Below are positions 4,050-4,205 of a DNA stretch of 4,336 nucleotides, in pieces (within the stretch, counting starts at the first letter, position 1; the number at the start of each line of letters is the position of its first letter). The notes below the pieces were generated by a model, which saw only the letters and a list, made by a program, of their open reading frames with translations, ran no database searches and was not told the DNA's origin. A program made the translations under genes and the position numbers. The stretch is from a virus (Duplodnaviria > Heunggongvirae > Uroviricota > Caudoviricetes), in the IMG/VR virus record IMGVR_UViG_2690315922_000003, positions 1 to 4,336 of that record; one strand, 5' to 3'.

Positions 4050-4124
4050 GGGTCAGTCGTATAAAGGTCATTACGGAAGGCTGTTAACCTTCTTATCGTG
4101 GTTCGAGTCCACGCTGTCCCGCCA
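4050..4124 (+). tRNA. tRNA, anticodon GUU (Asn) by manual fold; noncanonical features (T:T mismatch in acceptor stem, 3-bp D stem)
   Basis: Manual cloverleaf: acceptor GGGTCAG/CTGTCCC (6 of 7 pairs), D loop with GG, anticodon stem GAAGG/CCTTC with loop CTGTTAA, T arm CGTGG-TTCGAGT-CCACG, discriminator G and encoded CCA. Confidence 0.5.
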
Positions 4125-4129
4125 AATAT

Positions 4130-4205
4130 GCTGGTTTAGCTCCAATGGTAGAGCAGTCGCCTTGTAAGCGAATGGGTAGCGGTTCAAGTCCGTTAACCAG
4201 CACCA
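4130..4205 (+). tRNA. tRNA-Thr, anticodon UGU (by manual fold), 76 nt with encoded CCA
   Basis: Perfect 7-bp acceptor stem GCTGGTT/AACCAGC, D arm GCTC-CAATGGTA-GAGC, anticodon stem GTCGC/GCGAA (4 pairs) with loop CTTGTAA, variable loop TGGGT, T arm AGCGG-TTCAAGT-CCGTT, discriminator A, CCA. The D arm resembles E. coli tRNA-Thr. Confidence 0.65.

Follow-up and report, generated by a model that had tools for sequence, protein, structure and literature searches.

A pair of adjacent tRNA genes, tRNA-Asn(GUU) followed by tRNA-Thr(UGU), has been annotated for two decades in phage 21, Sf6 and many of their relatives. It appears in the GenBank entry of Sf6 (2003), in the paper on SfI (2013), and in BTP1, HK446 and others; the SfI paper records it in Sf6, ST64T, PS3 and phage 21 as well (PMC3636060), the genome announcement of phage 21 lists 2 tRNA genes, and the phage L paper refers to the Asn and Thr tRNAs of Sf6 at this location. 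A bias towards ACA codons was reported for SfI, and the tRNA-Asn's significance was called 'not clear' (PMC3636060). In the following we analyse the pair as it is carried by a 4,336-nt stretch of viral DNA (Caudoviricetes; IMG/VR record IMGVR_UViG_2690315922_000003, positions 1 to 4,336), to which we will refer as the window. Since phage 21, Sf6, SfI, BTP1 and hundreds of prophages carry annotations of the same two tRNAs, finding the genes adds nothing in itself, and our interest lies in what the pair is for.

Information on this point comes from nucleases that attack host tRNAs. The Toprim nuclease P2 Old is lethal because it cuts the anticodon arm off host tRNA-Thr(UGU) at a paired CNG motif; other tRNAs are cleaved at a slower rate (PMC12445682, 2025). 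The tRNA-Thr of phage 21 protects against P2 Old, its resistance resting on an altered CNG motif together with a shorter anticodon stem (C28U/G42A in tRNA-Thr21), and decoding of ACA is restored by phage tRNA-Thr(UGU) (PMC12445682). Similarly, AriB of the PARIS system cleaves the host tRNAs for Lys(UUU), Thr(UGU) and Asn(GUU) at U36AAUC|N41, and its neutralisation requires the T5 versions of all three (PMC12409363). The activity of the Thr member against P2 Old has thus already been shown experimentally.

The Asn-Thr tRNA pair of the window

Both genes lie on the plus strand, tRNA-Asn(GUU) at 4050..4124 (75 nt, with G73 and a 4-nt variable loop) and tRNA-Thr(UGU) at 4130..4205 (76 nt, with the pairs G1-C72 and C2-G71); each has an encoded CCA end, and the 5-nt spacer AATAT (4125-4129) separates them. 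ARAGORN called exactly 2 tRNA genes in the window, Asn (gtt) and Thr (tgt), and the Rfam family RF00005 recovered both (tRNA-Asn 55.3 bits, E 2e-10; tRNA-Thr 61.5 bits, E 5e-12) above its gathering score of 29 bits, no other Rfam family being matched in a scan of the whole window. The host genes asnT, thrU and tyrU score 72.6, 73.8 and 53.4 bits against the same family, and by score the window tRNAs are atypical, not pseudogene-like. RefSeq PGAP annotation, taken as a proxy for gene calls, includes both genes in most E. coli genomes that carry them. ARAGORN, Rfam and folding thus agree with the initial annotation of the window, made from the letters alone, that two tRNA genes with these anticodons, CCA ends and a 5-nt spacer follow the Q terminator; what it had overlooked were the peculiarities of the tRNA-Thr and the match to the long-annotated pair of phage 21 and Sf6.

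The tRNA-Asn has two mismatches, U4.U69 in the acceptor stem and U13.U22 at the end of the D stem, as the initial annotation had recognised in calling this tRNA noncanonical, and its set of universal nucleotides (U8, A14, G18 G19, U33, G53 T54 T55 C56, A58 and C61) is complete. The tRNA-Thr carries C14 (window position 4143) in place of the near-universal A14 that partners U8, and a G27.A43 mismatch that leaves an anticodon stem of 4 bp. Among its relatives position 14 may be C, T, G or A, with A in P1 and in host thrU; C14 appears to be tolerated, since the identical phage 21 tRNA is active in vivo. The identity elements for asparaginyl-tRNA synthetase (AsnRS) of E. coli are G34, U35, U36 and G73, and those for threonyl-tRNA synthetase (ThrRS) are G1-C72, C2-G71, G35 and U36. 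All are present in the respective window tRNAs, which are predicted to be charged; among the distinct variants that we collected from fetched loci (20 of the tRNA-Asn; 25 of the tRNA-Thr, including P1 and host thrU), G73 occurs in 19 of 20 and the ThrRS elements are invariant in 25 of 25.

The tRNA-Asn (75/75 bases) and the tRNA-Thr (76/76 bases) are identical to those of phage 21 (AJ237660), Sf6 and HK446, the tRNA-Asn is also 100% identical in phage L, and the whole 156-nt pair finds a 100% match in HK446 and Bas106. A region of 347 nt matched 150 phage records, the tRNA-Asn core was found in at least 120 IMG/VR contigs, and the pair occurs in 347 of 5426 complete E. coli genomes, mostly with PGAP annotation as tRNA-Asn and tRNA-Thr. 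That the window genes are real members of the known phage 21/Sf6-type pair is virtually certain. The pair forms part of a phage 21-type block of Q, PR' and tR' that circulates among lambdoid and P22-like phages.

The variants allow the fold of both tRNAs to be assessed, with the proviso that our IMG/VR search pattern fixed the T arm and the anticodon loop of the tRNA-Asn. Two-sided changes affect 6 of 21 pairs in the tRNA-Asn (5:68, 6:67, 7:66, 28:42, 29:41 and the mismatched 4:69), and compensatory two-sided changes affect 10 of 21 pairs in the tRNA-Thr. Paired cells make up 90% in the tRNA-Asn (36-53% when the pairing is slid) and 94% in the tRNA-Thr (21-49% slid), and for both tRNAs the covariation score was reached by 0 of 500 shuffles. 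Position 4:69 is unpaired in 18 of 20 tRNA-Asn variants (U.U in 16, U.C in 2) and in ~120 of 125 copies, all three pairs neighbouring U4.U69 having been replaced through compensatory changes, and U13.U22 is retained in 20 of 20. Judged from these comparisons, the structure of both tRNAs is under selection, the mismatches of the tRNA-Asn are conserved features and not decay, and both genes are genuine and probably functional; published data on the BTP1 tRNA genes in lysogen cultures (PMC7067206) and on the activity of phage 21 tRNA-Thr (PMC12445682) point the same way.

The initial annotation had also considered that the first tRNA might be degenerate, a view which does not hold: its mismatches are conserved while the neighbouring pairs covary, and the tRNA-Asn is the member that is kept where the second slot has decayed or is absent. 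Indeed, it persists in phage L/ST64T next to a degenerate second slot, and has no partner in Klebsiella phage 2b LV-2017, in which its flanks no longer align; the tRNA-Asn is all that can be aligned between loci of the E. coli type and those of the Klebsiella type. Likewise, the pair is identical across phages of E. coli, Shigella and Salmonella with differing flanks. Individual copies do vary. In a prophage of E. coli ET151 (L009 1562-1636) the tRNA-Asn has T54C in its T loop, and RefSeq/PGAP annotates the tRNA-Thr only, although ARAGORN still calls both; the atypical tRNA-Asn lies near the annotation threshold there, and some prophage copies are decaying.

The slot after tR' can be described as a variable tRNA array of which the tRNA-Asn is the constant member. 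Its versions comprise tRNA-Asn alone, tRNA-Asn with a degenerate 72-nt element annotated as Leu(UAA), the Asn-Thr pair, and an Asn-Phe-Thr-Arg(UCU) array; loci that display this variation are those of phage L/ST64T (L003 681-752), Klebsiella phage Mulock (L004 601-920) and Klebsiella phage 2b LV-2017 (L005 601-672). In a further 9 IMG/VR loci (L015, L037, L081, L083, L095, L103, L104, L113 and L114) the same tRNA-Asn is followed by a chimeric tRNA-Thr(UGU), of which the first 25 nt are phage-type and the rest is of host thrU type. Its anticodon stem has the 3' strand UCAUC for UCAGU in 8 of the 9, by which the CNG motif is broken and the stem shortened, and these two changes are of the same kinds as those reported for resistance to P2 Old. 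A glyT-like tRNA-Gly(UCC) lies 3 nt past the chimera and is followed by a hairpin with a T-run; it is 91-99% identical to K-12 glyT in 8 of 9 loci, with no blastn match for L015.

Anticodon stems and tRNA-cleaving nucleases

Host thrU, with the anticodon stem ACUGA/UCAGU, and host asnT, with GCGGA/UCCGU, each contain a paired CNG and UAAUC, whereas the tRNAs of the window, with the stems GUCGC/GCGAA in the tRNA-Thr (with G27.A43) and GAAGG/CCUUC in the tRNA-Asn, contain neither, and the same holds for the tRNA-Thr and tRNA-Asn of T5. At the CNG position the tRNA-Thr of the window reads UCG/CGA as opposed to CUG/CAG in host thrU, matching the published description of tRNA-Thr21, and the tRNA-Asn reads AAG/CUU as opposed to CGG/CCG in the host, with its full 5-bp stem kept. 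The GenBank record of phage 21, together with the C28U/G42A changes and the shorter stem given for tRNA-Thr21, identifies the latter with the window sequence. The Thr member therefore has a demonstrated activity against P2 Old with this exact sequence. Both P2 Old and PARIS AriB have host tRNA-Asn(GUU) as a secondary target, and neither cleavage motif is present in the phage copy; the pair as a whole matches two of this nuclease family's main targets.

These observations suggest a role in which the two tRNAs would supply ACA and AAY decoders that are insensitive to OLD-family Toprim tRNases such as P2 Old and PARIS AriB, nucleases carried by competing P2-like prophages and satellites. Host tRNA-Thr(UGU) is destroyed by these enzymes, and so, with lower efficiency, is host tRNA-Asn(GUU), and the phage copies would take their place; for the tRNA-Thr this rests on experiments with the identical phage 21 sequence, and for the tRNA-Asn such a nuclease-insensitive replacement may be proposed by extension. 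An overlapping benefit could be extra capacity for ACA, a codon that the host seldom uses and that is enriched in phage genes. We consider it probable, if far from assured, that the two are replacement tRNAs, Q-dependent and insensitive to the nucleases, which bring ACA supplementation as an added benefit, and we give even chances or slightly better to counter-defence being the main selective reason for both.

A wider proposition, advanced here tentatively and as less likely than not, holds that the Asn-Thr cassette in its entirety serves temperate lambdoid and P22-like phages as a module devoted to counter-defence, one that fits the target spectrum of the OLD-family Toprim nucleases carried by P2-like prophages and satellites. 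On this wider proposition the tRNA-Asn may be a cleavage-resistant replacement for host tRNA-Asn, its U4.U69, U13.U22, AAG/CUU stem and C39 may be nuclease-evading adaptations that keep recognition by AsnRS, and the thrU-derived chimeric tRNA-Thr with its broken CNG may represent an independent route to resistance. If true, small tRNA cassettes of temperate phages might be anti-nuclease devices rather than codon supplements.

Several points weigh against a counter-defence role. No tRNA-Lys(UUU) was called in the window by ARAGORN, so that the complete anti-PARIS set of the T5 type is lacking; as the T5 tRNA-Lys is required for the bypass of PARIS, the pair alone should not defeat the PARIS system that was tested. 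Rescue from P2 Old by phage tRNA-Thr was partial and relied on plasmid expression, with no phage infection involved (PMC12445682). Absence of a motif is the default of any diverged tRNA and by itself weak evidence, and paired CNG motifs do occur in Klebsiella-type tRNA-Asn (GCAGG/CCUGC and GCUGG/CCAGC) and in the tRNA-Thr of P1. Our IMG/VR pattern fixed C39 and C40 of the tRNA-Asn and thus placed variation at these positions outside the sample. Furthermore, the two tRNAs would be made late, but the trigger of OLD consists of early RecBCD inhibitors. Finally, the enrichment of ACA is real and keeps plain supplementation sufficient for the tRNA-Thr.

Expression of the pair and alternative roles

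Upstream of the tRNAs, the plus strand of the window encodes a Q-type late antiterminator of the phage 21 Q family (3469..3987; Pfam Phage_antitermQ PF06530, E 8e-26), the Sf6 homologue of which, gene 59, is annotated 'similar to phage 21 Q'. The late promoter PR' (3965..3994, plus strand; TTGACA-18 nt-CATACT, 10/12 match) overlaps the end of the Q gene and aligns with an Sf6 feature 'nearly identical to phage 21 late promoter' (L001 2476-2505); a promoter scan of 3800-4336 returned no other promoter-like site. The leader terminator tR' (4003..4049, plus strand) consists of a hairpin at 4003-4041 and a T-run at 4040-4049, and the qut region overlaps it by homology. The hairpin folds at -20.2 kcal/mol (z = -4.5; 0 of 200 shuffles as stable) and has a homologue in Sf6 annotated 'similar to phage 21 late terminator; tR''. 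A simple scan reported no terminator in 3800-4336, a result overruled by the folding and by the annotations of tR' in Sf6, phage 21 and phage L; the scan probably missed tR' owing to its long interrupted stem. Phage 21 and phage L have a tR' of the same sequence. The first base of the tRNA-Asn (4050) is the base right after the T-run of tR', and the order of features in the Sf6 GenBank entry is PR', qut, tR', tRNA-Asn and tRNA-Thr ('similar to phage 21').

Since the tRNAs have no promoter-like site of their own and stand directly after tR', they would be made by read-through of this terminator, which should be massive once Q has modified the polymerase and low through leakage from PR'. They would then be cut out of the leader of the late operon by RNase P and the host 3' processing enzymes, and charged by host AsnRS and ThrRS.

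Downstream, a late-leader segment in common with lambda (4203..4336, plus strand; lambda 44942-45074, 93% identity by blastn) begins exactly at the CCA end of the tRNA-Thr, which makes the 3' end of this tRNA a mosaic junction. Q21, PR', tR' and the tRNAs appear, by their patterns of homology, to behave as a single mosaic block in front of a lambda-type lysis leader. The window ends ahead of the lysis genes, its last 134 nt matching the leader upstream of holin S in lambda and Sf6; the distance from the tRNA-Thr to the holin gene is ~240 nt in Sf6. This leader contains a second conserved hairpin with a short T-run (4287-4333; -28.3 kcal/mol, z -3.25), which we had considered as a homologue of the lambda 6S/tR' structure, an assignment that was dropped as blastn places it downstream of orf-64. 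The remainder of the window is a lambdoid nin region encoding NinB, a Dam-type methyltransferase, NinF, YbcO and RusA ahead of Q. The methyltransferase frame (1181-1735) overlaps the end of ninB (747-1211) by 31 nt, and three plus-strand open reading frames of the nin region (1869-2264, 2474-2743 and 209-478; 131, 89 and 89 aa) have no Pfam match. Coverage of the whole window by any one phage or E. coli record does not exceed 75% in the collections searched, so this particular nin-region mosaic is absent from them.

Pure codon supplementation would make the tRNAs decoders for codons that late genes use more, without any link to defence. When the annotated coding sequences of Sf6 were compared with 42 annotated K-12 genes, ACA stood at 14.8 per 1000 codons in Sf6 (16.6 in late and 12.5 in early genes) and at 5.4 per 1000 in K-12 (odds ratio 2.75, p 3e-14); the SfI paper gives 17.3 against 7.1 (PMC3636060), and thrU is the sole UGU tRNA of MG1655 (PMC12445682). 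Asn codons taken together are modestly more frequent in the phage (odds ratio 1.22, p 0.002), an increase due to AAU (odds ratio 1.65), and in the coat gene of phage L 24 of 25 Asn codons are AAC. However, AAC is unchanged in Sf6 (odds ratio 0.96; 17 AAC and 11 AAU in its coat gene), and AGA (9.6x), AGG (6.8x), CGA, AUA, UCA and GGA are all more enriched than ACA, none of them being supplied by the phage. Because AAC is not enriched and more strongly enriched codons receive no tRNA, supplementation explains the pair only partly: it is plausible for Thr(UGU), poor for Asn(GUU), the role of which was 'not clear' to the SfI authors themselves (PMC3636060), and leaves unexplained both the choice of these two and why their anticodon arms depart from those of the host at precisely the nuclease determinants. 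As a full account of the pair we judge it unlikely. The view of the initial annotation that the anticodons suggest a different cargo or codon strategy thus holds only in part: ACA is enriched in the phage genes, but AAC (0.96) shows no such enrichment and there is no cargo, as lysis genes come next in the relatives.

Three further explanations may be considered. One is lysogenic conversion, in which leakage from PR' would let prophage tRNAs benefit the host, for example in the translation of accessory or virulence genes with rare codons, a role already suggested for the tRNAs of Stx phages. PR' may well be constitutive, by analogy with lambda and Stx phages (PMC7547250); the hairpin at 4287-4333 could shield the lysis genes from read-through, and a layout of terminator, tRNAs and terminator recurs in 933W and phage L. 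In lysogen cultures of BTP1, moreover, its 2 tRNA genes are set apart from 5 other genes above 100 transcripts per million (PMC7067206). Those cultures, however, include spontaneously induced cells (PMC7067206), and the reads need not derive from lysogens; a strong terminator lies directly upstream of the window tRNAs with no promoter-like site after it, and in the relatives it is lysis genes, not rare-codon cargo, that follow, all of which renders this explanation improbable. More improbable still is that one or both tRNAs are non-functional, decaying relics carried along with the Q21 module. Their scores 11-17 bits under the host counterparts, the two stem mismatches of the tRNA-Asn, C14 and G27.A43 in the tRNA-Thr, damaging changes in some prophage copies (such as T54C in ET151, where PGAP drops the gene) and the degenerate second slot of phage L/ST64T would fit decay, but compensatory changes occur in both tRNAs with the mismatches themselves conserved, identical tRNAs are found in E. 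coli, Shigella and Salmonella phages despite different flanks, identity elements and CCA ends are all retained, and the identical phage 21 tRNA-Thr restored viability in vivo. Finally, the tRNA folds might act as punctuation for RNA processing, i.e. as RNase P or RNase E signals that separate the PR' leader and qut RNA from the lysis mRNA or stabilise it. They do lie between tR' and the holin gene, in a leader that is not translated, with the 5' end of the tRNA-Asn abutting the T-run, but lambda and, according to the phage L paper, P22 have no tRNAs at this position, and conserved anticodons, identity elements and CCA ends would not be needed; we give this role hardly any credence.

Comparison with other phage tRNA cassettes

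The reading that we favour, of nuclease-insensitive replacement tRNAs, can be set against the known cassettes. The pair of phage 21, Sf6, SfI, HK446 and BTP1 has the same order, the same 5-nt spacer and the same slot after PR', qut and tR' and before the lysis genes; apart from the spacer sequence (AATAT against AACAT) and mosaic flanks, nothing material separates it from the window. In phage L/ST64T tR' and the tRNA-Asn are identical and occupy the same slot, but the second slot holds a degenerate 72-nt element annotated as tRNA-Leu(UAA), with no ARAGORN call and an Rfam score of 42.1 bits, and the downstream leader differs.

The initial annotation had drawn an analogy with Stx phages, and this is upheld by 933W, where ileZ-argN-argO lie between Q, pR' and the leader terminators on one side and stx on the other. 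The likeness consists in the shared genomic slot, which has Q, pR', qut and the leader terminators upstream, and in a further terminator after the tRNAs. By contrast, the 933W isoacceptors are Ile, Arg and Arg, the cluster has its own annotated putative promoter pT and lies ~370 nt after the first terminator, stx2 follows in place of lysis genes, and Q belongs to another family.

P1 (L006 525-678) likewise possesses Asn(GUU) and Thr(UGU) in the same order, 2 nt apart, with a tRNA-Thr ~80% identical to that of the window. Its tRNA-Asn, however, is a canonical cloverleaf of unrelated sequence (72.7 bits) that keeps UAAUC, its tRNA-Thr keeps the paired CNG, and the genomic context is different; as far as the sequences tell, the combination of Asn and Thr recurs with a partly different origin. 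With the rescuers from P2 Old and the T5 set the window shares the anticodons UGU and GUU and the loss of the paired CNG and of U39 of UAAUC, and with the P2 Old rescuers also the shortened anticodon stem of the tRNA-Thr, the tRNA-Thr of phage 21 being among those tested. Unlike the Lys/Thr/Asn set of T5, to which its sequences are unrelated, the window holds a temperate-phage cassette of two tRNAs without Lys(UUU).

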